From IMG/VR virus record IMGVR_UViG_2850796239_000008: a DNA stretch of 23,815 bases; one strand, 5' to 3'. Numbering within the stretch: position 1 is the first letter of the stretch; each line of letters opens with the position of its first letter. Source of the DNA: a virus. Lineage: Duplodnaviria; Heunggongvirae; Uroviricota; Caudoviricetes. The notes beneath the pieces were generated by a model. It did no database searches. It was given only the letters and a program-made list of their open reading frames with translations, and was not told where the DNA came from. The translations under genes were made by a program, and so were the position numbers. Below are positions 1-23,113 of this stretch, piece by piece.

Positions 1-480
1 TTAAGAACAACGTTTGCAGGATATCGTCACGATGGTGACCCAACGCGATCTTCGTCGCCCCAGTTCCGTTGCGGTGCGATAAAGGATACCGCGACGTAGC
101 CGAGAACACAGTGAGCAAGTGGTTTTGCCCTCTGGAATCTTCTCTTTCACGATACCGTAAGTGTTCTCTTCAACAATCTTGTACTCAACGCCCAGCTTTT
201 CAAGATACTCGGGCAGAACGTGTTCCGGGAAGCCCGGTTGCTTTTGATCGAGGTTAACAGCCACCAGCGAAAAATTGATTGGCGCGCTTTGCTGCAAATT
301 GCGCAGAATCTCCAGCATGGTATAGCTGTCTTTACCCCCGGAGAGGCAAACCATGATGCGATCGCCTTCTTCAATCATATTGAAGTCAGCAATGGCTTCG
401 CCCACGTTACGACGCAGACGTTTTTGTAATTTGTTCAGGTTGTATTGTTCTTTCTTTGTAATTTGTTGATTTTCTTGCAT
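1..480 (-). CDS. ttcA: tRNA 2-thiocytidine synthetase TtcA, 5' portion only; frame breaks after ...TATELG and the gene continues beyond the window edge
   Basis: ATG at 478-480; PP-loop motif SGGKDS ([13 protein letters not shown]). After ...YRTATELG the listed frame reads RRRSRWV...stop at 1-3, while the alternate frame reads [19 protein letters not shown], typical of this ATPase family. Break is at the C-run 58-61. Confidence 0.85.
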
Positions 481-531
481 TATTTCAGTTCTCTGGTACT
501 AAATGGGGCAAATTGGGGGCAAACTTTGCAA

Positions 532-1767
532 CTACGATAACCGCGCATTCAACATGGCTATCTGTTCGTCGTTCATGTCATCAATCCACATACCGTAAAT
601 TTCATACACCATTTGCGCAGTTTCATGCCCCATCTGGCTGGCTATAAATGCCGGGTTCGCTCCTGCCGTCAACAGCCAGCAGGCAAAAGTATGTCGCGTA
701 TGGTACGGATTACGGCGGCGAATACCAGCACGTTTTACTGCTGCATTCCATCTTGCACCCAAACTGCTTACCGAGTAATAAGGTTTCTGTTTTTCGTTAC
801 ACACCCTGGGCATGAAAACAAAATGCAGTTTTTGCTTTTCAGTTCTGCCGTACTCCCGATGATAAAAAGTGATTTCGCTTTTGCGATGATGCCCGGTCAG
901 TTTGTATTGCTCCTTCAGTGCTTCAAGAGCCGGCTGCAGTAATGTTACCGTCCGGATCCCGGCATTTGTTTTTGGGGGACCGAACATATCAAGTATCGTC
1001 AGGTTTCTTCTGACATTCACAATTCCCTTCTCGAAATCCACATCCTCCCACGCCAGAGCTGCCAGTTCCCCGTGACGAAGCCCGGAGTAAACGGCAAATT
1101 TCCACAAGTTTTGGCTCTGTCCTTTTTCACTTTCCATTAATGCATTGAATTCTGTTTTAGATAACGGGTCAGGCTTTATTCTGTTTCGCTGTAATTTTTT
1201 TACTCCTTCAAATGGTTTGGTTGATATAAATCCCGACTGATACGCAAAACGTAACAACGAACAGAGCAGGGCGATATAGTTATCAACTGTGCGCACGGTT
1301 CTTCCTTTTTTGTTGGATCTTGGATTATCTAGGTAAAGCGTTTCTCCATGCAGCAGTTCATTCCGGTAGTTTAAGATATCGCTATAACGAATATGCGATA
1401 TCGGGGTACTCTCACAAATTATTATCCTGAGTGTTTTTAATTGTGATTTCGTTTTCTTCATTGTGTTTGTTGTTAACTCTGTCTCTTTAATTTTTGTCCA
1501 GATATCACAAAGCTCCCCGAATGTTTTTATGACCCTCGTTGTCACCATTTTTGCCCCAGTGCTGGACTGGGGAAAACGTCTTAAATACTCAAATTCACCG
1601 GAACTGATTTCATGAACTATCAACGCTCTTAAATTCCCGGCCTTTTTAATGTTACTGTTAGTAATCTCCCAGCCTTTCAATGTTTCCCGACATCGTTTTC
1701 CTCGAAACATGAACCAGATGCGAATGTATTTACCTCGAATCTCGACACCTGTTGGTAATTTAGACAT
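532..1767 (-). CDS. intR: Phage tyrosine integrase (Rac-type, 411 aa)
   Basis: 411-aa ORF directly next to ttcA; C-terminal catalytic region with HTRHTFACWLL and MGHETAQMVYEIYG (R..H-x-x-R..Y signature); ATG at 1765-1767, stop TAG at 532-534. Confidence 0.9.
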   Translation of the reverse strand: MSKLPTGVEIRGKYIRIWFMFRGKRCRETLKGWEITNSNIKKAGNLRALIVHEISSGEFEYLRRFPQSSTGAKMVTTRVIKTFGELCDIWTKIKETELTTNTMKKTKSQLKTLRIIICESTPISHIRYSDILNYRNELLHGETLYLDNPRSNKKGRTVRTVDNYIALLCSLLRFAYQSGFISTKPFEGVKKLQRNRIKPDPLSKTEFNALMESEKGQSQNLWKFAVYSGLRHGELAALAWEDVDFEKGIVNVRRNLTILDMFGPPKTNAGIRTVTLLQPALEALKEQYKLTGHHRKSEITFYHREYGRTEKQKLHFVFMPRVCNEKQKPYYSVSSLGARWNAAVKRAGIRRRNPYHTRHTFACWLLTAGANPAFIASQMGHETAQMVYEIYGMWIDDMNDEQIAMLNARLS

Positions 1768-1768
1768 A

Positions 1769-1984
1769 TCATGAGTCTTTGATAAACTGATTTATCTTCG
1801 GATAGTTGTACCAGATAATCCCTCGCTTACTGTCTGGCTTCCCTAAAGGAGATACTCGTTTGAAGTGGAAGCCTTCCACCCAACAGTTCTGGCGGTATGC
1901 TTCAATTTGTCTGGCACCCAGACCAGTGCGAAGCATCAGGCCGTATTCAACCATCCACTCTTCATTAAAGATTACTTGTGCCAT
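1769..1984 (-). CDS. xisR: Excisionase-like small protein (71 aa from ATG; in-frame TTG at 2008 gives 79 aa)
   Basis: Small ORF immediately upstream of the integrase with a 1-nt gap; RBS AGAGGTG 4-5 nt before the ATG at 1982-1984; product [32 protein letters not shown]... resembles the prophage excisionase-like family as I recall it. Confidence 0.6.
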
Positions 1985-2083
1985 CGCATCACCTCTGGCA
2001 GGCGCCAATGTTAGGCTGAAATTGACGCCCGATGTTGATTATTAATAATCAGCTATGAAGTTTTAATTTGAATACAATGCAAT

Positions 2084-2272
2084 TCACGAGGACTGAAGTT
2101 TCTCGCAATTAAAATTTATCAGTTTTACTTTCTGCTCTCTGGAAACGCCTGCTTCTTTTTCCCCTGAGAGCATTTTTTCGCATTCTGATTTCGTTAGTTT
2201 TGTCTTTGAGTATCTTGTCCAGCTGGCAGGAGAACCACCTTCCTTTTCAATAGTGGCTGTAATTTTATACAT
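2084..2272 (-). CDS. Small prophage early protein, 62 aa (possibly YdaC/DUF1187-like)
   Basis: ATG preceded by GGAGGT at 5 nt; the longer ORF in the track starts at a TTG. Family assignment is from memory only. Confidence 0.5.
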   Translation of the reverse strand: MYKITATIEKEGGSPASWTRYSKTKLTKSECEKMLSGEKEAGVSREQKVKLINFNCEKLQSS

Positions 2273-2322
2273 GAACACCTCCATTAATATTTTCAAAAAC
2301 CGTGTCCAAAATGCACTTGGTT

Positions 2323-3420
2323 TTACACCGGAATATTCTCATCGTATCCTGCTTGTTGCGTTTCGTTTTGTGTTTGTGGATCCGGGAATGCATATTCAAC
2401 GCCTTCCAGTTCAATCCATAGTGCATTACGACCAGCTTTGATTGTCGGCCAGTCCATACCTTTGATTCTTTCCCATGAGCGGGAGGTGAATGTTTTTTCC
2501 AGCAAATCAGCTTTTGCGCGTTTGGCGTCGTTACTGGTGCCCCCATGGTGCTTGTTGAGCAACTCGATAATTTCATCAAGTGCGATTTCTTTTGCACGCT
2601 TTTCTTTTAGCCATGTCGGTGTACCGTCGTTGGCAAATAATTCACTGTTATCCCGTGAGGTATCGATGCCGAGGTGTTCACCTCCCAGGTTAAGAAACTC
2701 GATATGAGGAAGAAAGTTTTTAAATGTTGGGTTTGAAAATACCTGTCCATCAATACGGGTGGAGCGATCTTTTAGTATTCTGGCGGTGCGCCACACCTGA
2801 CCGGTTTCTATGTTCATTTGCTTCTCCATCTGGATCAGGATGGAGGGTTCATAACCGGTTTCTGTTTCTGCTTTCATTTTTATACCGGTTTTTGCCAACT
2901 GGCGTTTGCCATCATCACCTTCGAAAAAGTCATACTCATATCCTGCACGCCCGCACATAATAATGTGCGCCTGACTGTTAACAAATCGATCGGTAAAGCG
3001 TCGCCACTCCTGTTTGAGCCACGCCCAGTCTGAAAATTCCAGTCCTCGTTTACGGTTTCGGCGTCTGGCATACTCGTCGCATAATCCGGTCCAGAAGTGA
3101 CTGATGGAGTCGATGATCATTACGGAACCGCTGCTTTCCGCTTCATTAATGGCTTCAAGCAGATCAACAAACGAGCGGGTTTTTGCCGTAAATAATTCGA
3201 TATTTTCCGCATCAAAGCGGGGTTTAACCCAGTCAGAGCCTGTTTCTGTGTCCAGAAACATTACCGGGCGGTTACCAGCTTCAATTCCCCGTTGCCGCAT
3301 AAGCATTACCAGACCAATAGCCAGTTCGCTTGCTGTGTAGGTTTTGCCGTCGCCAGCAAACCCCATAATTCCTGCTTTTAGATAGGCCTGTGTGTTTATT
3401 GCTCGTTGAAAAAGCGCCAT
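2323..3420 (-). CDS. RecA-fold ATPase, AAA_24/Sak4-like phage recombination protein (365 aa)
   Basis: Walker A GFAGDGKTYTA, Walker B-like VMIIDSISHF; GGAGGA RBS 9 nt upstream; sits where a lambdoid phage carries its recombinase. Confidence 0.65.
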   Translation of the reverse strand: MALFQRAINTQAYLKAGIMGFAGDGKTYTASELAIGLVMLMRQRGIEAGNRPVMFLDTETGSDWVKPRFDAENIELFTAKTRSFVDLLEAINEAESSGSVMIIDSISHFWTGLCDEYARRRNRKRGLEFSDWAWLKQEWRRFTDRFVNSQAHIIMCGRAGYEYDFFEGDDGKRQLAKTGIKMKAETETGYEPSILIQMEKQMNIETGQVWRTARILKDRSTRIDGQVFSNPTFKNFLPHIEFLNLGGEHLGIDTSRDNSELFANDGTPTWLKEKRAKEIALDEIIELLNKHHGGTSNDAKRAKADLLEKTFTSRSWERIKGMDWPTIKAGRNALWIELEGVEYAFPDPQTQNETQQAGYDENIPV

Positions 3421-3425
3421 AGATT

Positions 3426-3722
3426 TTAGTCCTCCAAATCAATATCAACCTGGTGGTGGGCAATGGTTTCAGCCATGTACCGGATGTGTTCTGCCATGCG
3501 CTCCTGAAACTCAACATCATCATCAAATGCGTGGCTGATTGCCTGTTTATTGGCACCGTGGCGTTGCAAATGGTCGATGCAGAGCGATTCAAACAGGTGC
3601 TGAGGCAGACCTTTTTCCAGGTCGTCCGCCAGTTCCGTTTCTTTTTCTTCACGAACGATCTGCTGGTAGTGGCGAGCCCATGCCATTTCTTCAATACGAT
3701 CAAAAATCGGGTAAGCGCTCAT
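3426..3722 (-). CDS. Hypothetical acidic protein, 98 aa
   Basis: ATG at 3720-3722 (a GTG lies 3 nt upstream); stop lies 3 nt before the Sak4-like start, so tightly coupled in the operon. No recognisable motif. Confidence 0.5.
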
Positions 3723-5640
3723 CACTGGTCACTCCAAAATTTTCAAGCTTGTTGGCAATCATCATTGCGATGTCAGGGATTGCAGGCGCATAGGCTATGC
3801 ACGCAGGATTCGCACATAAACCGTAAACCGCCGCAATCAACACCTGTTTTTTCCAGTTGAGTTCATCTTCGCCAGTTTCATTATTGCTATCATTATGCTG
3901 ATCGCTGCCAGCGTTCTCCGGTAACAAATCATCAGCTTTTTCCGTTTTCTTCGGCTCTTCTTCCTGTGCTTCATCTGGTTTTTTTTCGTCAAAAGTTTCC
4001 TGATAAGTTGCGTCTCCCATCACCGCGCCACAGTCAGGGCAGTTATCCTCGCCAGTCTGATTGCAGGGTGTTCCCTCCTCCGGTTCGCTGTTCTGGTGCT
4101 GTTTATCTTCAGTCTGTCGCACTTCATTTTCCGTTTTTTTGACTTCATTTGAGGAGATATGATGACCGGGAATCCATTTCGAATCATTCGGGTCGCTAAT
4201 CCCTTCAACAAATTCTCCGCGAGAGGCAGCCAGTAATTTGTCTGCATCGACAGGATTTTTGGGCGGAATGTTTTTCCGGGCTTCATGGAGTTCTGTCCGC
4301 AGTTTCTGATATTTCGCATCAACAGCATTTACCTGTGACTGAGCATCCAGCGGCTGCGTGTCCTGATGATGTTCAGTTGCATCCGGTTCCACTGTTTCAG
4401 CCGTTGCCTGTTCATCTGCCATTGCGCAAGATGGTTGCGGTTTTTCTTCATCATCCTGTTTTCCTTCTTCTGTTACACGTTGCGGCATCGGGGCAGAGGA
4501 GCGACCGCAGGCAATATCCACGATTTCCGGATCAGGGTTGGCATGATCGGTTTCAGTCAGTACCTTGTTCAGATATTCAGTGACGTGCGCGGGGATGACC
4601 TCGATACCAATCGGTGCTTCTTTCACTGACGCAACCACGATGGCGCGGGAATAATCCATCCCGCCAGGCATGGTGATGAATTTGTCGCGGAAAACAGAAA
4701 AGGGCGGTTTATTTTCAGCGATAATTTCCTCGACACGTTTAGCGTGTGCCGGATGAAGGTTATAAATATCCACGTCCATTGAACGGGCCAGTACGCCAGT
4801 GGCTACGTCGCGCGCCAGCGACGTCAGATCGTGGACGAAACCTTCGCCGCGATCGGTGAGGTTCCCGCCGCCAGCATTAGCACCGGAAGCCGTGCGAGTG
4901 ATACGCGAAACACGATTTCCTTTCATCCACTCTTTTGTCAGCAGACCGCGATCGGTGTAGTTGGCATCCAGATATGCTTCGAAAAAAGCAGTCATCAGTC
5001 CCAGATTTGAATTACCAGGATTAGGGAAAACTTTGTCAGTATCACGCACGAGTTTGTGGAGGTCGCGAATCTCCAGCGGGTCGAGCAGACTGGTTTTATG
5101 CGAAACAGCCAGAGCAGTAACAGCCGGTAGTTCTTCATCCCGAGCAATGTGTAATGCCTGGAGTTCGTCGCGTGAAACGTGCGTTACCGGTTTTTCGCTG
5201 CCGTGTTGCGCAAGCCAACGAATGGGCAGTTCCTGACCGGAAACTGGCAGGAGCATGTTCTCCTCAATTTCTGTCATGTCTTCGCCGTTGACGTTGGTAT
5301 TGTCAGTGCTGGCTGGTTTGTCCTGAACAGAGGGAGAAGATGCGATAAATACCATTGTGATGCCATCTTCCCCGCCTTTTTCGTAACGGTTGCAGAATTC
5401 CGTATCAAACACGCCTTCTGGTGGGAGGTCATCAACAACGGGCAAATTGACGCGAACAGGTTTTTTAAAGTCATCTTCATCGTAGCCAGCATCGTCAATC
5501 GCAACAGCACCACGGGAGATGGCAATGGATAATTTTTTCGCTTCAGCCCAGTAAAAACCGCCTTTAATACCGAGGCGTTTTCTTACTTTGTCATTTTTTG
5601 CTTCGTAATACAGTGGGTAAACTTGTTTATCGGTGCTCAT
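3700..5640 (-). CDS. Large acidic early protein, 646 aa; occupies the recE position and may resemble the non-catalytic N-terminal part of exonuclease VIII; no nuclease motif seen
   Basis: Uninterrupted 1941-nt ORF with ATG at 5638-5640; long D/E-rich low-complexity stretch (about residues 380-560); Cys cluster [14 protein letters not shown]-terminus ...[18 protein letters not shown]. Confidence 0.6.
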
Positions 5641-5663
5641 TGTTTTTTAACCTCAACTCATAT

Positions 5664-5960
5664 TCAGATTGCATAAAAGAAACGAACTGATGATGCGATA
5701 TGAGAGAGTTCTTTCAGTCGTTGATAACTGATACCGTATTTCTTGTCAGCCTCTTCAATGCGAGCTGTGAGTAATGCAATTTCTTTAATGGCACATACAC
5801 AACAATCAAATGTTCCCAGAACGTAACCGTCATCAATAATTACCGTGACGTTTTCTTTTTGGGAAATCTGAATGAAACTATGTAATGTATTCCCACATTT
5901 AAATTCGGCGAGAGAATCGTTAATAACATCAAGTTCAATTTCACATTCAATAATGCTCAT
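5664..5960 (-). CDS. Hypothetical protein, 98 aa
   Basis: Internal ATG at 5958-5960 has RBS AAGGAA 7 nt upstream; the upstream ATG at 6008 has none. Product starts MSIIECEIELDV... Confidence 0.5.
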   Translation of the reverse strand: MSIIECEIELDVINDSLAEFKCGNTLHSFIQISQKENVTVIIDDGYVLGTFDCCVCAIKEIALLTARIEEADKKYGISYQRLKELSHIASSVRFFYAI

Positions 5961-6034
5961 TGCTGTTTCCTTTTTTAAGGTTGAGTGAATCCCTGCCATT
6001 GCTGGCATAAATTCAGTTTCGAATATTCAGTTAA

Positions 6035-6322
6035 TTAAAGTTCGTGTGCCATCTTGTCTTTTTCGGCACAAGCTGCACTGCAATATTTTCGTTTCTTTCT
6101 GGCAATCATGTTTCCATGCATATAAATAAGCTCGCCAGTAAAAGCTTTTTCAGGTAAAAACTGTTTATTGCAGAGATGGTAATCACATTGTATTAAATCC
6201 AGGTCACCTTTTTGCTGGAGAATTTTTCTGATTCTCCACAGCCATTTTTTAATCCCGGTATGACTGATGGTCTGCCTGAGGGCAGGTGTAAAACAATAAT
6301 CAAGCATGGGGTTCATATCCAT
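6035..6322 (-). CDS. Hypothetical Cys-containing small protein, 95 aa
   Basis: ATG at 6320-6322 with GGAG 4-5 nt upstream; basic patch RKKRKYCSAAC and CDYHLC suggest a possible zinc ribbon. Confidence 0.45.
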   Translation of the reverse strand: MDMNPMLDYCFTPALRQTISHTGIKKWLWRIRKILQQKGDLDLIQCDYHLCNKQFLPEKAFTGELIYMHGNMIARKKRKYCSAACAEKDKMAHEL

Positions 6323-6332
6323 AGCTCCATTT

Positions 6333-6880
6333 TTATTTTAAGGAAAGCAACTGCTCTACGGTCATGTTTTTAATTGCGCCCCGGTTTACAAGAGTCCAGC
6401 CCTGTTTTTCCAGGTAGAACTGGAAAGTCTCCAGGGTACAGACCAGTGCGCCATCAGGAACGGTTTCGGTGAATTCGACATTGCCGAATTTGTCGAAGTG
6501 AACAACCAGAGTGCGACCATCACCCGGAATCATCTTGTCAGCAGGTGGGGTGTTATTCTGGCGCAGTTCGGCCTCCATGCGGTCGAACTCAGCAATGTAG
6601 GCTTCCTTGAATGTGGCGGCTTTTTTGCCCGTGAAGCCCATCACCAGGAAAACGAAGCCGTTTTTGGTGATTTGGTAGGCGTTATAAGAATTGCCGCGGT
6701 GTTCGAATTTAACCCGCGAAAAGTTGCTGGTTAAAAATAGTTCAGAACATTCGAGGGATTCTATTTTTTGAACAACATGGTGATGCTGCTTGCCAAAAAA
6801 CTCAGCAATCGAAATAGAAGTAGTGACGGCGCGACCATTTTCGATGGTTACGTCAGGGTGAGAAAGGGTAGTAGCCATAA
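6333..6880 (-). CDS. Rha-family phage regulatory protein; the ORF is open in frame up to 7172
   Basis: Phage_pRha-type N-terminus TTSISIAEFFGKQHHHVVQKIESL right after the Met at 6878-6880 (RBS GAGGA 8 nt upstream). The upstream 97 codons are Pro/Gly/Arg-rich and look non-conserved. Confidence 0.7.
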
Positions 6881-7193
6881 TGACATCCTCAAGTGATAAG
6901 TTAATTAACTCACCAGCAGAGGTGCTAATCTCATGGGTGGTGAGACGCACAGGGTTAGCACTACCGGTCACTCGAGAACCCGGCCAGCCTTGCGGCTGCC
7001 CCGCACGCCTCACCATAATTTGAATGTGGCTGTGCATTACGCATAAAAAAACCGCTTCAGCGCGGCTATGCGCTCGAGTAACTTTCGGGGTGCTAATCCC
7101 GGCACCCGTTTTATGAGGTGCAGGTGCACTATAATTCCACCCGTTCTGGTTTTCAATAGCTACATTCAACATTTTCTCTTTCCTTTCATCACC

Positions 7194-7348
7194 GAAGTGA
7201 ATTTTGTGATGCGGTGCCTGGTGCCTCCAGGTGACGTTAACCAGTTAACAATTACAGTCGGCTTTCCCACCCAAAACAATAAGGACTAACATGACTTTTA
7301 ACTGTGCCGCGTGCGCTTAGCCGCATTCACCGCATCACAAAATTCACT
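7194..7348. repeat. Perfect 22-bp inverted repeat pair (AAGTGAATTTTGTGATGCGGTG / CACCGCATCACAAAATTCACTT) flanking 111 bp
   Basis: Arms at 7194-7215 and 7327-7348 are exact reverse complements. The spacer contains GTTAACCAGTTAAC (7235-7248) and the short hairpin CCTGGtgcctCCAGG. Confidence 0.85.
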
Positions 7349-7585
7349 TTAAAAAGGGCGGACATCAGCCAGCAATTAAACCGATGCCGCCAACTGGTAC
7401 TTCACACAGCAATGTCGTTATTTACAACCGGAAGCGCACTCCCACCATTTAAATTTCACAGACAAGACCGACTCTTTATGGATACCGGAAATGCGCCTTC
7501 GTGTTGTGCCCGGTTTTATTTCACCACCTCCGGGCTTTGGTGGTATCTTTACTGAAGTTCTCACACAACCAGTAAGGAAATGAAT

Positions 7586-7876
7586 ATGCCAACGTATCTC
7601 GCCAGAGTAGAACTATATAATGCTGAGCCAGAGGATTACGAAGGGCTTCATAAATATATGCTCTCACTAGGATTCAGGAGAACGATCCCCCATGGAGATG
7701 GTTCGTATAATCAACTCCCGGACGGAACTTATGTTTTCGAAAAGGGCGGTGATATTTATCAAATTCGCAGCCAGATATCTGACTATGCAGACCGACTATC
7801 CGGGTATCGCGCGTCTGTTTTTGTTTGCGAATTCAGTCAATGCGCATGGTATTTATACCCCGCCAAGACCCGGTGA
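7586..7876 (+). CDS. Hypothetical 96-aa protein on the opposite strand to the early operon (moron)
   Basis: ATG at 7586 with AAGGAA RBS at 6-nt spacing; product MPTYLARVELYNAEPEDYEGLHKYMLSLGF... has a beta-alpha-beta-like pattern; its 3' end overlaps the convergent minus-strand gene by 24 nt. Confidence 0.5.
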   Translation: MPTYLARVELYNAEPEDYEGLHKYMLSLGFRRTIPHGDGSYNQLPDGTYVFEKGGDIYQIRSQISDYADRLSGYRASVFVCEFSQCAWYLYPAKTR

Positions 7877-8056
7877 ATATCCTGCACGGCCTTCTGCTTT
7901 GTAGAAGGCTTCTTCGCTATCATAATCGCCAGATTCCAGCGCTTCTTTAGCCAGCCAGATGCGTGCCCCAGTGCCTGCATTTGGCTCCAGTTGCTGGAGG
8001 CGTTTTGCATCTTCTAGGAGTAGAGCGATAACGTGTTTTAATTCTGTCTCGTTCAT
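7853..8056 (-). CDS. Hypothetical 67-aa early protein
   Basis: ATG at 8054-8056 with GGTGAG RBS; start lies 1 nt after the stop of the upstream gene, so translationally coupled. Product MNETELKHVIALLLEDAKRLQQ... Confidence 0.45.
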   Translation of the reverse strand: MNETELKHVIALLLEDAKRLQQLEPNAGTGARIWLAKEALESGDYDSEEAFYKAEGRAGYSPGLGGV

Positions 8057-8057
8057 T

Positions 8058-8213
8058 TTACTCACCTGAATGTCTTCCCAACCAACGACGTGCGCCAGCT
8101 TCGGTTTTAAACGTTTTGCTTTTGGTATACGTCATGGCGGTGAATGTGCCGTCTTGATTGGGAAACACGCCACATACCAGAGATTCGTTGTTGCCAAGAT
8201 CGATAGTATTCAT
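8058..8213 (-). CDS. Small prophage protein, 51 aa (YdaF/YdfA-like, DUF1391-type)
   Basis: ATG at 8211-8213; product MNTIDLGNNESLVCGVFPNQDGTFTAMTYTKSKTFKTEAGARRWLGRHSGE matches in length and character the 51-aa Rac-region protein as I recall it. Confidence 0.55.
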   Translation of the reverse strand: MNTIDLGNNESLVCGVFPNQDGTFTAMTYTKSKTFKTEAGARRWLGRHSGE

Positions 8214-8393
8214 GTTGACCCCATTTCCCCTTAACGCCGGGTGGCGGAACGTTTTATCTACTGCGCTTTGTATCAATCAACAACTGCCGTCATGTTCGTA
8301 TGCCTCAGGCTGGCTACTTAGCCCTGTTCAGTGACTGGATAACTCGAGGTATTGTCCTGCCGTTCTCTGGTGGGGCGTTGTTTGGATATGCTT

Positions 8394-8422
8394 ATTAAAC
8401 ACAATTTGTTTTCTTATGTCAA
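8394..8422 (-). promoter_or_regulatory. Leftward early promoter candidate (pL-like): TTGACA-17-TTTAAT with overlapping palindromes
   Basis: Minus-strand -35 TTGACA at 8422-8417, 17-nt spacer, -10 TTTAAT at 8399-8394. Palindromes AACAC-GTAAT-GTGTT (8421-8435) and AAACA-CAATT-TGTTT (8397-8411) overlap the -35 and spacer. Confidence 0.5.
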
Positions 8423-8460
8423 CACGTAATGTGTTTTATGGTGGGTGTCATATGATGATG

Positions 8461-8937
8461 CTACAAAAAAGCCCGCTGATAGCGGGCTGATTGGCATATT
8501 ACTGTGATAGCAAGATCATTATTCCGGTGGGGATTATCTTTAATCCTGCCTCTCAAATATTTTTCTACATACTCATCGATTTCTTTTAGCCGGACTTCAA
8601 ATAGCTCAATCATTCGTTGTTGTTCTGAGCCCGGTAGCTGGTTAAACAACTCAAGAAGTTTTCGTTGGGATTCATTTAACCACAATTCAGAAGATTCCTG
8701 TTCTCCAAAGAGGAGCTCAGGAGGAGATATGCCAAGTGCCTTTCCCAATACGACAGCGTCATGTACTCCAACATTTCTGCTGCCCGCCTCATAGTTACCT
8801 ATACGCGATTGCGTCCATCCGCAGATTTCAGCAAGTTTTCCTTGAGATAAACCAAGCTTCTGCCTGCGCTCTTTAAGACGCATTGCAATTTTGTCATTGA
8901 GCCTACTAGCGGCAATTTTTTCGTTTTCTTTTTCCAT
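8461..8937 (-). CDS. racR: Prophage repressor, XRE-family HTH, 158 aa (RacR-type)
   Basis: ATG at 8935-8937; HTH region LGLSQGKLAEICGWTQSRIGNYEAG; 158 aa; divergent from a Cro-like gene across a 96-bp operator region. Confidence 0.85.
   Translation of the reverse strand: MEKENEKIAASRLNDKIAMRLKERRQKLGLSQGKLAEICGWTQSRIGNYEAGSRNVGVHDAVVLGKALGISPPELLFGEQESSELWLNESQRKLLELFNQLPGSEQQRMIELFEVRLKEIDEYVEKYLRGRIKDNPHRNNDLAITVICQSARYQRAFL
8465..8488 (-). terminator. Rho-independent terminator at the end of the repressor gene
   Basis: Minus strand reads AGCCCGC-TATC-GCGGGCT followed by TTTTTT; the hairpin overlaps the last 8 codons and stop of the repressor ORF. Confidence 0.6.
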
Positions 8938-8947
8938 TGCATCCTTG

Positions 8948-17881: not shown

Positions 17882-18237
17882 ATGCAGTCACGATCACTTC
17901 TTCTTGACACCGGGACATGGGATATCCTGCTTGATGATACCGGAAATCTTGCCATTACTGATAATCCCCATGCGGTAGCTCAGGATGTGGCGTGTGCGTG
18001 CAGTACTTTTCTGGGGAGTGCTGGTACGACTCAACGGCTGGCATACCTTACTGGCCACGCATCCTCGGACACTGGCCCGGCACACAACTGGTGAATGCCA
18101 CTCTGCAACAGGAAGCACTTAAACTGCCGACCGTGAGCGCCGCTGTCTGCCAGGTCACAGCTGATCAAACCCGGACAGTAACAGGTGTGCTGCGTATTAC
18201 AGATACCAATAATGACATTTTTACGGTATTGCTATGA
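17882..18237 (+). pseudogene. Baseplate wedge protein (gpW/gp25-like), split by a frameshift in a G4 run
   Basis: ORFs 17882-18094 and 17992-18237 join as ...ACACSTFLGECWYDSTAGIPYW... if one G is added at 18013-18016; strong RBS CAGGAG before the ATG at 17882. Confidence 0.65.
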
Positions 18238-19475
18238 GTGAAAATAAATCTTTTTCTACCGCAGTGCCCGCTGTACAGATTTCGGATCGCGGGCTGAATG
18301 TGCCGGATGAAGCGGATATTCTGAGCGGCAGGCTTGCTGATTTTTCGGCGGCGCTGGGCGGGGCCATGAGTACCAGTCTGAGCAGTCCGCAGGGACAACT
18401 TGCATCCAGCGAAAGCGCCATTATTGCGGATAAAAACGACCAGTTGCTGTATATCGTTAACCAGATCAACCCTGACTTTTCCAGTGGTCGCTTTCAGGAT
18501 GCAATAGGCAGGATTTATTTCCTGGAGCGCCGCGGGGCCACAGGTACGACAGTAACAGCGACCTGTACCGGGCTGGTTGGCACGCTGATCCCGGCGGGCA
18601 GTATGGCGCAGGATGAGGCCGGTTATAAGTATGTCAGTCAGTCAGACGTCACTATCGGCGCATCAGGGCAGGTTGATGCGGTATTTCTGAATTTGTCCAC
18701 CGGCCCCGTCGGCTGTCCTGTGGGGACGCTGAATAAAATTTATAAGGCAATACCTGGCTGGTCAGGTGTCACTAACGCCAGTGCCGGTGTGCCGGGCAGC
18801 GATGAGGAAACCCGTGCGGACTTTGAAAACCGCCGACGTAATTCAGTTGCCCGTAATGCCCGGAATATTCTGGAAGCCATCCGGGGTGAAATACTCTCCA
18901 CGGTGGAAAACGTGGTGGATGTTTACGTCACCCATAATCCGAAAAAAACAGAACAAAAAGCCGGAGTCAGTCAGTATCCATTAACACCCGGTTCGCTTTA
19001 TGTTGGCGTGTACGGCGGCAGCCCGGCAGATATCGCGGCGGCCATCTGGCGTAAGGCTCCGCCGGGTATTGATATGAATGGCAACACAACGTTCACTGTT
19101 GCAGATAAGGAGTACGATCCGCCGTATCCTGAATACGTGATCAGCTGGCAGACACTCAAACCCGTCAGTCTGCATGTCAGTGTGACGCTGAAAAAAAGTG
19201 ACTACCTGCCTTCAGATATTACCCGACAGGTACAGCAATCCGTGCTGGACGCATTTAATGGTACAGATGGTGGTCTGCGGGCAAGGGTTGCCTCTGTTGT
19301 CTCTGCCGGGCGCTACTATGCCGGCATTTACAAAACCGATCCGGAACATATTGATATTCTGGGCCTTACTGTGAGCCGTGACGGTTCGTCATGGACAACG
19401 GCTGTCACTTTCGGGATAGATGAGATTCCGGTTCTGGATGTGTCGGATATCAGTGTGAAACTCCAGGAGGCATAA
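18234..19475 (+). CDS. Baseplate J-like protein, 413 aa
   Basis: Size and position after the W-like gene; ATGA overlap with the upstream stop. Confidence 0.75.
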   Translation: MSENKSFSTAVPAVQISDRGLNVPDEADILSGRLADFSAALGGAMSTSLSSPQGQLASSESAIIADKNDQLLYIVNQINPDFSSGRFQDAIGRIYFLERRGATGTTVTATCTGLVGTLIPAGSMAQDEAGYKYVSQSDVTIGASGQVDAVFLNLSTGPVGCPVGTLNKIYKAIPGWSGVTNASAGVPGSDEETRADFENRRRNSVARNARNILEAIRGEILSTVENVVDVYVTHNPKKTEQKAGVSQYPLTPGSLYVGVYGGSPADIAAAIWRKAPPGIDMNGNTTFTVADKEYDPPYPEYVISWQTLKPVSLHVSVTLKKSDYLPSDITRQVQQSVLDAFNGTDGGLRARVASVVSAGRYYAGIYKTDPEHIDILGLTVSRDGSSWTTAVTFGIDEIPVLDVSDISVKLQEA

Positions 19476-21303: not shown

Positions 21304-21849
21304 ATGTTGCATTTAAAAAATATTACTGCGGGTAATCCGAAAACCGTGGAACAATATCAGCTGACAAAACAATATGATGTCACCTGGCTTTTTTCGGAAG
21401 ACGGAAAAAACTGGTATGAAGAGCTGAAGAATTTCGCCAGCGACACAATTAAAATAACTTACACCGGAGACGGTCGCGTGGTGTGGGTCGGTAAGGATGT
21501 GACAGGCATTGAACCCCGTAACGCCAGTGTTATTGAAGTTCCTGATATTACCGCCAACCGCCGCATTACCGCGCCGGGTTACTGGTTTTACCGCAATGAT
21601 GAATTTGTCTTTGACTACAGACTCAAAGCGGAAGATGAGCGTGATGCCCTTCTGGCTCAGGTCAGTGCCCGGACAGGGGAATGGGAAGAAGACCTGCTGC
21701 TGGGGTTAATCAGCGACGAAGATAAAGAAAAGCTGAAAGCCTGTCGTATTTACGCGAAATCACTGCAGGCGATGGATTTCAGTGTCATCACAGATAAAGC
21801 CACATATAACGCCATCAACTGGCCGGAGCGTCCCGATGCCGCAGCTTAA
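21304..21849 (+). CDS. Tail fibre assembly protein (Tfa/gpG-like), 181 aa
   Basis: Starts 2 nt after the fibre stop; C-terminal Tfa-type signature ...AKSLQAMDFSVITDKATYNAINWPERP. Confidence 0.8.
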   Translation: MLHLKNITAGNPKTVEQYQLTKQYDVTWLFSEDGKNWYEELKNFASDTIKITYTGDGRVVWVGKDVTGIEPRNASVIEVPDITANRRITAPGYWFYRNDEFVFDYRLKAEDERDALLAQVSARTGEWEEDLLLGLISDEDKEKLKACRIYAKSLQAMDFSVITDKATYNAINWPERPDAAA

Positions 21850-23113
21850 AGGTGTGATTAAAACGCCCACGGGAGAACCGCTGGACGGCGCAACCATTAC
21901 ACTAACCTCCATACACAACCGTGCAGGGATTCTGAAAAGTGTTTTCAGCCATGTCACCACACAGAACGGGGAATATGACTTCCCCGTTCTGCCGGGTGTG
22001 TACAGCGTTCGCCTGACACAAAGCACACGGCGCCTTTCAGAAATCGGTGTCATCCGCGTTTATGAAGATTCAACGGACGGTTCGCTGAATGATTTTCTGG
22101 GCGCAACTGATATTGACCTGCGTCCGGAATCCCTGAAGAAATTCGAAGAGCTGGCGCAACAGGCGCAGCAGAGTGCCGGGAGCGCAGCCGGAAACGCACG
22201 GCAGACGGCGCAGGATGTGACGGCAGCCGCAACGGCCCGTGATGATGCACAACGTTTTGCGGAGAAAGCCCGACAGGATGCAACCGTCACAGCTGAGAAC
22301 AGAAAGGCCACAGCGGAAGACGTGAAAAGCACGGGGAAAAACGCCGTCTTATCCGGTCAGCGTGCACAGGCAGCCGCAGGTTATGCCCGCGCAGCAGAAC
22401 AGGCCAAAAATGACATTGATGCTGCGCTGACCGGCACTCTGAAAACGGCTAACCATCTGTCTGAAATCGCAGCAGCAGGCGAAAAGGCACAACAGAAGTC
22501 CCGGGATAATCTGGGGCTGAAAAGTGCGGCCACGATGGAAGCACAGAGCGACATTTACGACCGGACAAAAGGCCGTCTGGCGATACCCGGCGCATTCGGC
22601 TTTGGGCGTGCTTTTCTGCCTGAAGATGTTATCCGTTTTGACACTAAGAGTGATTTCCTGGCCTGGGTAAGGAATGCGCTGCCAGGTGAATATTCCGTTG
22701 CTGGCCCCTACGACATCATCATACCCGACACACGGTTTGAAGGGGTGCTCAGCATCCGGTGGACTGATGCACGCCCTGAGACAACAGAACCGAGGTACAG
22801 AGCCAAATCCCTTACTTTTTACGGCATTAACGGCCCCATTTATCACACCCGCTACTGCTACTGGCCCATATCCAGACTGACTGGCTGGGTGAAAATAAAT
22901 ATAACCACAGAAGATATTATTTACAGAATCGTGGCGAGCTCTGTCCGCAACAGATGGGGAGACCCTGACATTGGCGGGCTGATTATTGCTGCGTACCAGG
23001 GAGAAGCTGACGGTGATAAAGTCATCAGACTTGTCAGGGGCGGTCATACAGAGGCTCACGACTGGGACCGGTGGGGATTTCAGTGCCCAGTACTCCCACC
23101 GGAACGTATATAG
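21836..23113 (+). CDS. Side-tail-fibre-like protein, 425 aa: Stf-type N-terminal domain with an atypical C-terminal half
   Basis: N-terminus ...GVYSVRLTQS...GVIRVYEDSTDGSLNDFLGATDIDLRPESLKKFEEL matches the prophage side-fibre N-domain pattern; Ala/Gln-rich coiled segment; C-terminal about 180 aa lack fibre repeats. Confidence 0.7.
   Translation: MPQLKGVIKTPTGEPLDGATITLTSIHNRAGILKSVFSHVTTQNGEYDFPVLPGVYSVRLTQSTRRLSEIGVIRVYEDSTDGSLNDFLGATDIDLRPESLKKFEELAQQAQQSAGSAAGNARQTAQDVTAAATARDDAQRFAEKARQDATVTAENRKATAEDVKSTGKNAVLSGQRAQAAAGYARAAEQAKNDIDAALTGTLKTANHLSEIAAAGEKAQQKSRDNLGLKSAATMEAQSDIYDRTKGRLAIPGAFGFGRAFLPEDVIRFDTKSDFLAWVRNALPGEYSVAGPYDIIIPDTRFEGVLSIRWTDARPETTEPRYRAKSLTFYGINGPIYHTRYCYWPISRLTGWVKINITTEDIIYRIVASSVRNRWGDPDIGGLIIAAYQGEADGDKVIRLVRGGHTEAHDWDRWGFQCPVLPPERI

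Follow-up and report, generated by a model that had tools for sequence, protein, structure and literature searches.

One-base deficits in G/C runs of ttcA and of prophage genes in a Shigella boydii chromosome record most probably reflect homopolymer under-calling

In the chromosome record CP026875.1 the gene ttcA is interrupted by a frameshift, and several genes of the adjacent prophage are interrupted in the same manner. The question raised by this locus is whether the bacterium has lost these genes or whether the record has lost bases. The stretch of DNA that was analysed (hereafter the window) is 23,815 nt long and corresponds to CP026875.1:3109136-3132950 (assembly GCA_002950355.1; the whole record has 5,164,076 bp). 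Positions 1-10480 of the window are identical to the record. CP026876.1, the accession that follows, belongs to a plasmid of S. boydii ATCC 35964, from which we infer that CP026875.1 is the chromosome of that strain.

The region is a Rac-type prophage located in the 5' end of ttcA. In the Escherichia coli K-12 record the cryptic prophage Rac starts 50 nt inside ttcA (b1344), and the K-12 locus has the same gene order, ttcA-intR-xisR, and the same prophage boundary as the window. Judging from the sequence, the Rac-type prophage integrates within the 5' end of ttcA and evidently rebuilds it. The main features of the ttcA end and of the prophage are the following.

1-480, minus strand: 5' part of ttcA, an ATG-started ORF of 159 aa comprising 141 genuine TtcA residues and 18 out-of-frame residues, followed by a stop
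58-61, minus strand: C4 run as written on the plus strand (G4 in the coding sense), a run of five in all comparators and the source of the ttcA frameshift
431-480, minus strand: first 50 nt of ttcA, from the Rac-type prophage, attL side; collinear with ttcA-intR-xisR of K-12
532-1767, minus strand: intR-type tyrosine integrase, 411 aa, intact
11485-12755: IS600, interrupting the DnaB-type helicase gene, which is left as 319-aa and 145-aa fragments
14682-15449: IS1, at the junction of the lambdoid early region and the myovirus tail module

The lambdoid early region carries intR, xis, an AAA ATPase gene, gam, a gene for a 646-aa RecE-family protein, rha, a repressor/cro pair, ydaT and the DnaB helicase gene, and the right part is the baseplate and tail-fibre module of an E217-like myovirus. 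The mosaic is different from that of K-12 Rac, since here the Rac/lambdoid early region is joined via IS elements to the E217-like myovirus tail module. The prophage has no head or packaging genes and is therefore defective whatever the state of its homopolymer sites.

The closest complete E. coli genomes are those of the enteroinvasive (EIEC) strains L001 (NZ_CM177009) and L002 (NZ_CP119441), with 99.1-99.2% identity over the common regions. In their annotation ttcA is intact (936 bp), the spike protein has 225 aa, the sheath initiator 118 aa and the HTH repressor 139 aa. For the broken sites as a group, the comparison rests on relatives that are 0.2-1% diverged.

The frame of ttcA is lost after ...LYRTATELG, and the frame one base over continues TtcA to the edge of the window; in the minus-strand translation, the premature stop is the first triplet of the window. 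The remainder of the gene forms a separate 144-aa ORF in the source genome (L004 10501-10935), and an uninterrupted ttcA frame of about 311 aa is absent from the record, which has the 159-aa and 144-aa ORFs instead. A preliminary description of the window, made from its letters alone, had attributed the break to a one-base deficit in the C run at 58-61. Minus-strand translation and comparison bear this out: the run is CCCC in the window and CCCCC in the EIEC relatives and in K-12. The alternate-frame translation also agrees with TtcA orthologues, as had been anticipated, and one added G yields a 311-aa TtcA with 100% identity to WP_001157407.1. On the TtcA equivalog model NF007972 of NCBIfam, the repaired protein reaches 513.9 bits (cut-off 272), in line with the initial assignment to the PP-loop ATPase family. 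Against the Pfam PP-loop model PF01171 it scores 51.7 bits (cut-off 27), and the recorded 159-aa ORF, with 20.3 bits, falls below that cut-off.

The hallmarks of TtcA are the SGGxDS PP-loop motif and CxxC cysteines that bind an Fe-S cluster. The motifs SGGKDS (residues 47-52) and CSLC (122-125) are both inside the ttcA ORF of the window; the second CxxC motif, CNLC, is past the frameshift and comes into frame only after the one-base repair. If the truncation were real, this second motif and everything else after residue 141 would be lost and TtcA activity should be abolished, an expectation that has Fe-S ligation by TtcA as its premise. There is no secondary decay of the gene: ttcA of the window differs from that of L001 at seven nucleotides, every one a synonymous change, including the two located beyond the shift, and the repaired protein is identical to WP_001157407.1. 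The repaired protein differs from K-12 TtcA by one residue (G290 versus C290); unlike K-12, ttcA is recorded here with a one-base deficit.

The short form of ttcA, in this sequence context, is absent from the complete E. coli genomes searched. An 81-nt segment of ttcA from the window has no exact match in 4,726 complete E. coli genomes, the best match being 81/82 with one gap. The exact IntR protein of the window is present in 298 indexed blocks, and all eight of the other places listed carry a 311-aa TtcA. The hosts with an identical IntR are about 0.9% diverged from the source, and ttcA is intact in all those retrieved.

Comparison with relatives revealed four further genes in the window with the same kind of lesion.

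8461-8937, minus strand: repressor-like HTH gene, 158 aa here and 139 aa in relatives
8529-8532, plus strand: G4 run in the repressor-like gene; G5 in relatives
17193-17869, plus strand: gene for the membrane-puncturing spike (xxxxx_N and gpV Apex motif), broken into ORFs of 80 aa and 154 aa
17417-17421, plus strand: G5 run in the spike gene; G6 in 9/9 independently retrieved relatives
17882-18237, plus strand: sheath-initiator gene (gpW-like), split into 70-aa and 81-aa ORFs
18013-18016, plus strand: G4 run in the sheath-initiator (W) gene; G5 in 10/10 relatives
21836-23113, plus strand: tail-fibre gene (phage_tail_N; L015 14644-15921), whose C-terminal frame departs from relatives after the run at 23037
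23037-23040, plus strand: G4 run in the tail-fibre gene; G5 in 6/6 relatives and in L046

The spike and W-like genes had already been singled out as repairable by one G each, in the runs at 17417-21 and 18013-16. Both proposals are confirmed by the relatives, where the spike run is G6 instead of G5 and the W run is G5 instead of G4; together with ttcA, the three runs compared are one base longer in the relatives at every site, a comparison that the preliminary description had proposed. Three like lesions are additional to these: those at 8529-8532 and 23037-23040, and one in abgB outside the window. In the repressor-like gene, the ORF is lengthened to 158 aa because the one-base deficit lies three codons ahead of the normal stop. 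The gene abgB is about 9 kb to the left of the window, and a change from C5 to C4 (L004 ~19475) splits its 481 aa into 263 + 218 aa.

The intact forms of the affected phage genes are common. In relatives the spike is a single 225-aa protein and the sheath initiator has 118 aa. By exact look-up, 673 contigs carry the intact 225-aa spike, as against 5-7 with the 80-aa fragment; the intact sheath initiator is found on 825 contigs; and the 139-aa repressor is found on 776 contigs, with the 158-aa form on one, the source itself. Overall, the broken forms of these three genes occupy 1-7 contigs. Once repaired, the spike, W and repressor sequences agree with the proteins of the relatives. The exact baseplate-J protein of the window is present in 230 indexed blocks, and 7/7 of the other places listed have G6 and G5 at the two runs, with the 225-aa spike and the 118-aa sheath initiator both intact. 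L046 encodes a DUF4376 protein identical to that downstream of the tail-fibre gene and has G5 at 23037.

A census of the runs in the aligned relatives was used to describe the lesions as a class. All five clean one-nucleotide differences between the window and its closest relatives are deficits of the window in G/C runs of 5-6:

58: C5 to C4, ttcA
8529: G5 to G4, repressor-like gene
17417: G6 to G5, spike gene
18013: G5 to G4, sheath-initiator (W) gene
23037: G5 to G4, tail-fibre gene

Shortening affects 5/23 of the G/C runs of at least five, 0/112 of the A/T runs of at least five (Fisher p = 1e-4 versus G/C runs of at least five) and 0/76 of the G/C runs of four (p = 5e-4 in the same comparison). 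No run in the window is lengthened relative to the aligned relatives. G/C runs of at least four make up only 1.9% of the window, and the pattern of lesions in G/C runs is far beyond chance. With the flanking site in abgB included, the five lesions of the window plus one are all losses of a single base from G/C runs of at least five, which is the signature of under-calling.

On these comparisons of sequences, we consider it highly probable (about 0.93) that the frameshifts in ttcA and in the phage genes are G/C homopolymer under-calls of an unpolished PacBio assembly and not real decay. They would be consensus-calling errors of a long-read-only assembly instead of bacterial mutations. In unpolished PacBio data the bases of G/C runs are systematically under-counted, and more often so in longer runs; each under-call removes one base, and the affected gene then reads as a frameshifted pseudogene. 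In the living strain the runs in ttcA, the repressor, spike, sheath-initiator and tail-fibre genes and abgB most probably have 5, 5, 6, 5, 5 and 5 bases, respectively, and the genes would be in frame. The reads themselves would be expected to show the longer runs. Homopolymer under-calling had been put forward as the cause in the preliminary description, and it now agrees with deletions restricted to G/C runs, with the intact relatives, with the identity of the repaired TtcA and, as described below, with batch specificity, homoplasy and the accession range of the record.

The strongest alternative, which we regard as unlikely, is genuine gene decay: slipped-strand mutations at G/C runs would have inactivated ttcA and the prophage genes in the course of the reductive evolution of Shigella. 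Shigella genomes are rich in pseudogenes, and the prophage has already been disrupted by IS600 and IS1. The gene ttcA is reportedly dispensable in E. coli (Jager et al. 2004), which also counts in favour of decay. The distribution of the lesions is nevertheless difficult to reconcile with it. Natural slippage should also strike the A/T runs, which are five-fold commoner and longer, and should yield some +1 events; neither is observed in the window. Here about six lesions fall within 42 kb, and sister genomes of the sequencing batch reach 2 per kb; densities of this order would imply hundreds to thousands of frameshifts per genome. Downstream of the shift in ttcA no secondary degeneration is seen, and the retrieved relatives with identical neighbouring proteins are all intact.

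Genuine frameshift pseudogenes of Shigella have the same look, a conserved gene being split into two ORFs at a short run, but they are passed on within a lineage and are recovered again when sequencing is done independently. The lesions described here behave differently: they differ between batch genomes of the same lineage and are absent from other assemblies. The NCBI genomes with the 80-aa spike fragment (n=5) all have accessions of the CP0268xx series, namely CP026824, CP026825, CP026842, CP026845 and CP026875. Their chromosome sizes and IS patterns differ, and there are at least two species among them, since CP026843, which adjoins CP026842, is a plasmid of S. dysenteriae ATCC 9754. Common descent of the spike frameshift in these five genomes was considered and rejected, given the differences in IS content, in a 4-nt deletion (see below) and in species.

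One-base deletions were counted in the tail module of this myovirus type that these genomes share, with the Illumina draft contig L024 as a reference. The five batch genomes have 2 (L015), 18 (L013), 10 (L014), 15 (L016) and 8 (L017) deletions in G/C runs, a total of 53 over 40.8 kb of alignment, and none of them has an insertion in a G/C run. The seven assemblies that do not belong to the batch (L001, L002, L021 and L025-L028) have no such deletion in 87 kb (p = 5e-27). L016, which is CP026842 and, from the neighbouring plasmid accession, presumably ATCC 9754, has one of the highest deletion densities (15 in 10.2 kb).

The combinations of short runs vary among the batch genomes, and no tree explains them: for instance, L013, L014 and L015 have the short form of the W site, which L016 and L017 lack, and a real 4-nt deletion is shared by L013, L014, L016 and L017 and missing from L015. 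L016, L017 and the independent Logan contig L018 belong to one lineage, with 3-4 substitutions in 7.4 kb. Relative to L018, L016 lacks one base at 13 G/C runs and L017 at five; the sites are largely different and the run is always shorter. The lesions follow the sequencing batch and not the phylogeny, which argues against decay.

One observation from the same lineage favours decay. The G5 allele of the spike is also found in L018, which is otherwise free of the batch errors and which was retrieved by that very allele.

The 4-nt deletion provides a contrast to the homopolymer artefacts. It lies in a GTCA repeat (L001 position 28608), truncates the baseplate-J gene in L013, L014 and L016-L018, and is a genuine inherited pseudogene lesion. 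In the window, the baseplate-J gene (18234-19475) is intact and codes for 413 aa.

The ttcA run also gives some support to real mutation. The exact 159-aa product, with the identical slip from G5 to G4, is found in nine Logan/ENA contigs unrelated to the source, among them L005 (Logan SRR9075483), L006, L007, L011, L012, L003 and L008. L005 is a K-12 derivative that is otherwise clean: over 20.5 kb it differs from MG1655 by one substitution and the ttcA indel. These contigs were examined as possible members of the source lineage, and this was ruled out, since their identity to the source is 97.4-99.1% and several resemble K-12. The recurrence in nine assemblies suggests either sporadic real slippage at the ttcA run or a recurrent error, arising in other pipelines as well. 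It is conceivable, at a probability slightly lower still than that of decay in general, that the G5 run of ttcA is a recurrent slippage hot spot and that the S. boydii strain, in common with those nine assemblies, is truly without the tRNA 2-thiocytidine-32 modification. In that case ttcA would be sporadically and repeatedly switched off across Escherichia and Shigella.

In certain bacteria homopolymeric G/C tracts serve as contingency loci, and programmed frameshifting is known from tail genes of some phages. These precedents, and the sporadic variation of the ttcA run between assemblies, are the points in favour of functional tracts, that is, of phase-variable switches or programmed-frameshift sites at which a short run would mean a gene that is regulated OFF or a shift that is bypassed; this we consider extremely improbable and reject, because the relatives carry single uninterrupted ORFs at the spike, W and repressor loci, the runs have merely 5-6 bases, well under the length of typical contingency tracts, the short ttcA allele in this sequence context is missing from the 4,726 complete genomes, and the affected genes (a tRNA modification enzyme, a repressor, baseplate proteins and a hydrolase) are functionally unrelated.

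The explanation by under-calling is consistent with what has been published on the sequencing batch. In the literature, accessions CP026774-CP026878 are attributed to the PacBio Shigella set of Kim et al. 2018 (Genome Announc 6:e00282-18), a CDC set of 59 historical genomes whose assembly used PacBio reads and no short-read polishing. The bracketing accessions and the neighbour CP026876 indicate that CP026875 belongs to this set; the PacBio-only origin of CP026875.1 thus comes from the literature on the accession range and not from the record itself. According to Yassine et al. 2022 (PMC8795385), those PacBio genomes were left out of cgMLST for 'numerous indels in the homopolymers', and this comparison of PacBio and Illumina data from the same strains, which blames homopolymer indels, also argues against decay. 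In the rows available of their Supplementary Table 1, PacBio and Illumina versions of the same strain differ at 9-584 alleles, the largest discrepancy in those rows (584 alleles) being that of ATCC 9754.

The error class reported there for the genomes of Kim et al. 2018, homopolymer indels leading to false alleles and pseudogenes, is the same as that found here, and the magnitude is consistent with the 9-584 cgMLST allele differences per genome, as far as those parts of Yassine et al. (PMC8795385) extend. Unlike the present analysis, the same parts of that paper give no list of sites and make no mention of ATCC 35964. What is new beyond Yassine et al. is that the errors at these loci are deletions only, depend on run length and are almost entirely in G/C runs.

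Independent assemblies of the source lineage were sought with lineage-specific protein queries, and no short-read assembly of the lineage was found over ttcA, the spike gene or W. The IS600-truncated DnaB query retrieved one Logan contig of 1.9 kb, which is 100% identical to the window and contains none of the affected runs. The identical DUF4376 query retrieved draft contigs that start at the DUF4376 gene itself, with the exception of L046. Within the lineage, the truncated TtcA, the 158-aa repressor and the 154-aa spike fragment were found only in the source, and there was no second lineage assembly covering the sites. The identical RecE-family protein query retrieved prophages that are integrated elsewhere, at yebY/copD.

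CP026875.1 and its sister records serve as closed reference genomes for Shigella serotypes. If the frameshifts are false, they would occur about once per 4-7 kb here and up to twice per kb in the sister genomes, and would affect pseudogene counts, inferences on reductive evolution, calls of prophage defects and allele distances. The genes ttcA and abgB and those for the prophage repressor, spike and sheath initiator should not be called inactivated unless short reads confirm it. This would be an ordinary data-quality artefact with no new biology, and its value is that of a warning on these reference genomes.

Several minor observations concern other indels and the surroundings of the window. 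At about 2295-2305, between the DUF1187 and AAA ATPase genes, the window has an 11-nt segment, AAAAACCGTGT, that is absent from L001; this indel is not homopolymeric and is probably a real variant. In the intergenic left flank (L004 ~12698, 12909 and 16831) there are A8 to A7 and T4 to T3 deficits and a T4 to T7 expansion relative to all relatives, and in the right flank there is one T9 to T8 difference (L041 14893). A different error profile is seen in the long-read record L022 (GCA_900450175.1, UGFN01000003.1, second prophage copy), with insertions and deletions at both A/T and G/C runs and many fragmented tail genes; no such errors are seen in the first copy of that record (L021).

In the relatives with G5 at the tail-fibre run, the ORF has 421-422 aa and reaches about 50 nt into the DUF4376 gene; the ORF of the window stops earlier, at 23113. 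To the right of the window (L023/L041, beyond 23815), the end of the tail-fibre region is followed by a sitABCD-like ABC metal transporter, uspF, ompN and ydbK. The EIEC strains L001 and L002 have ipaH3 and pphA at the equivalent position.
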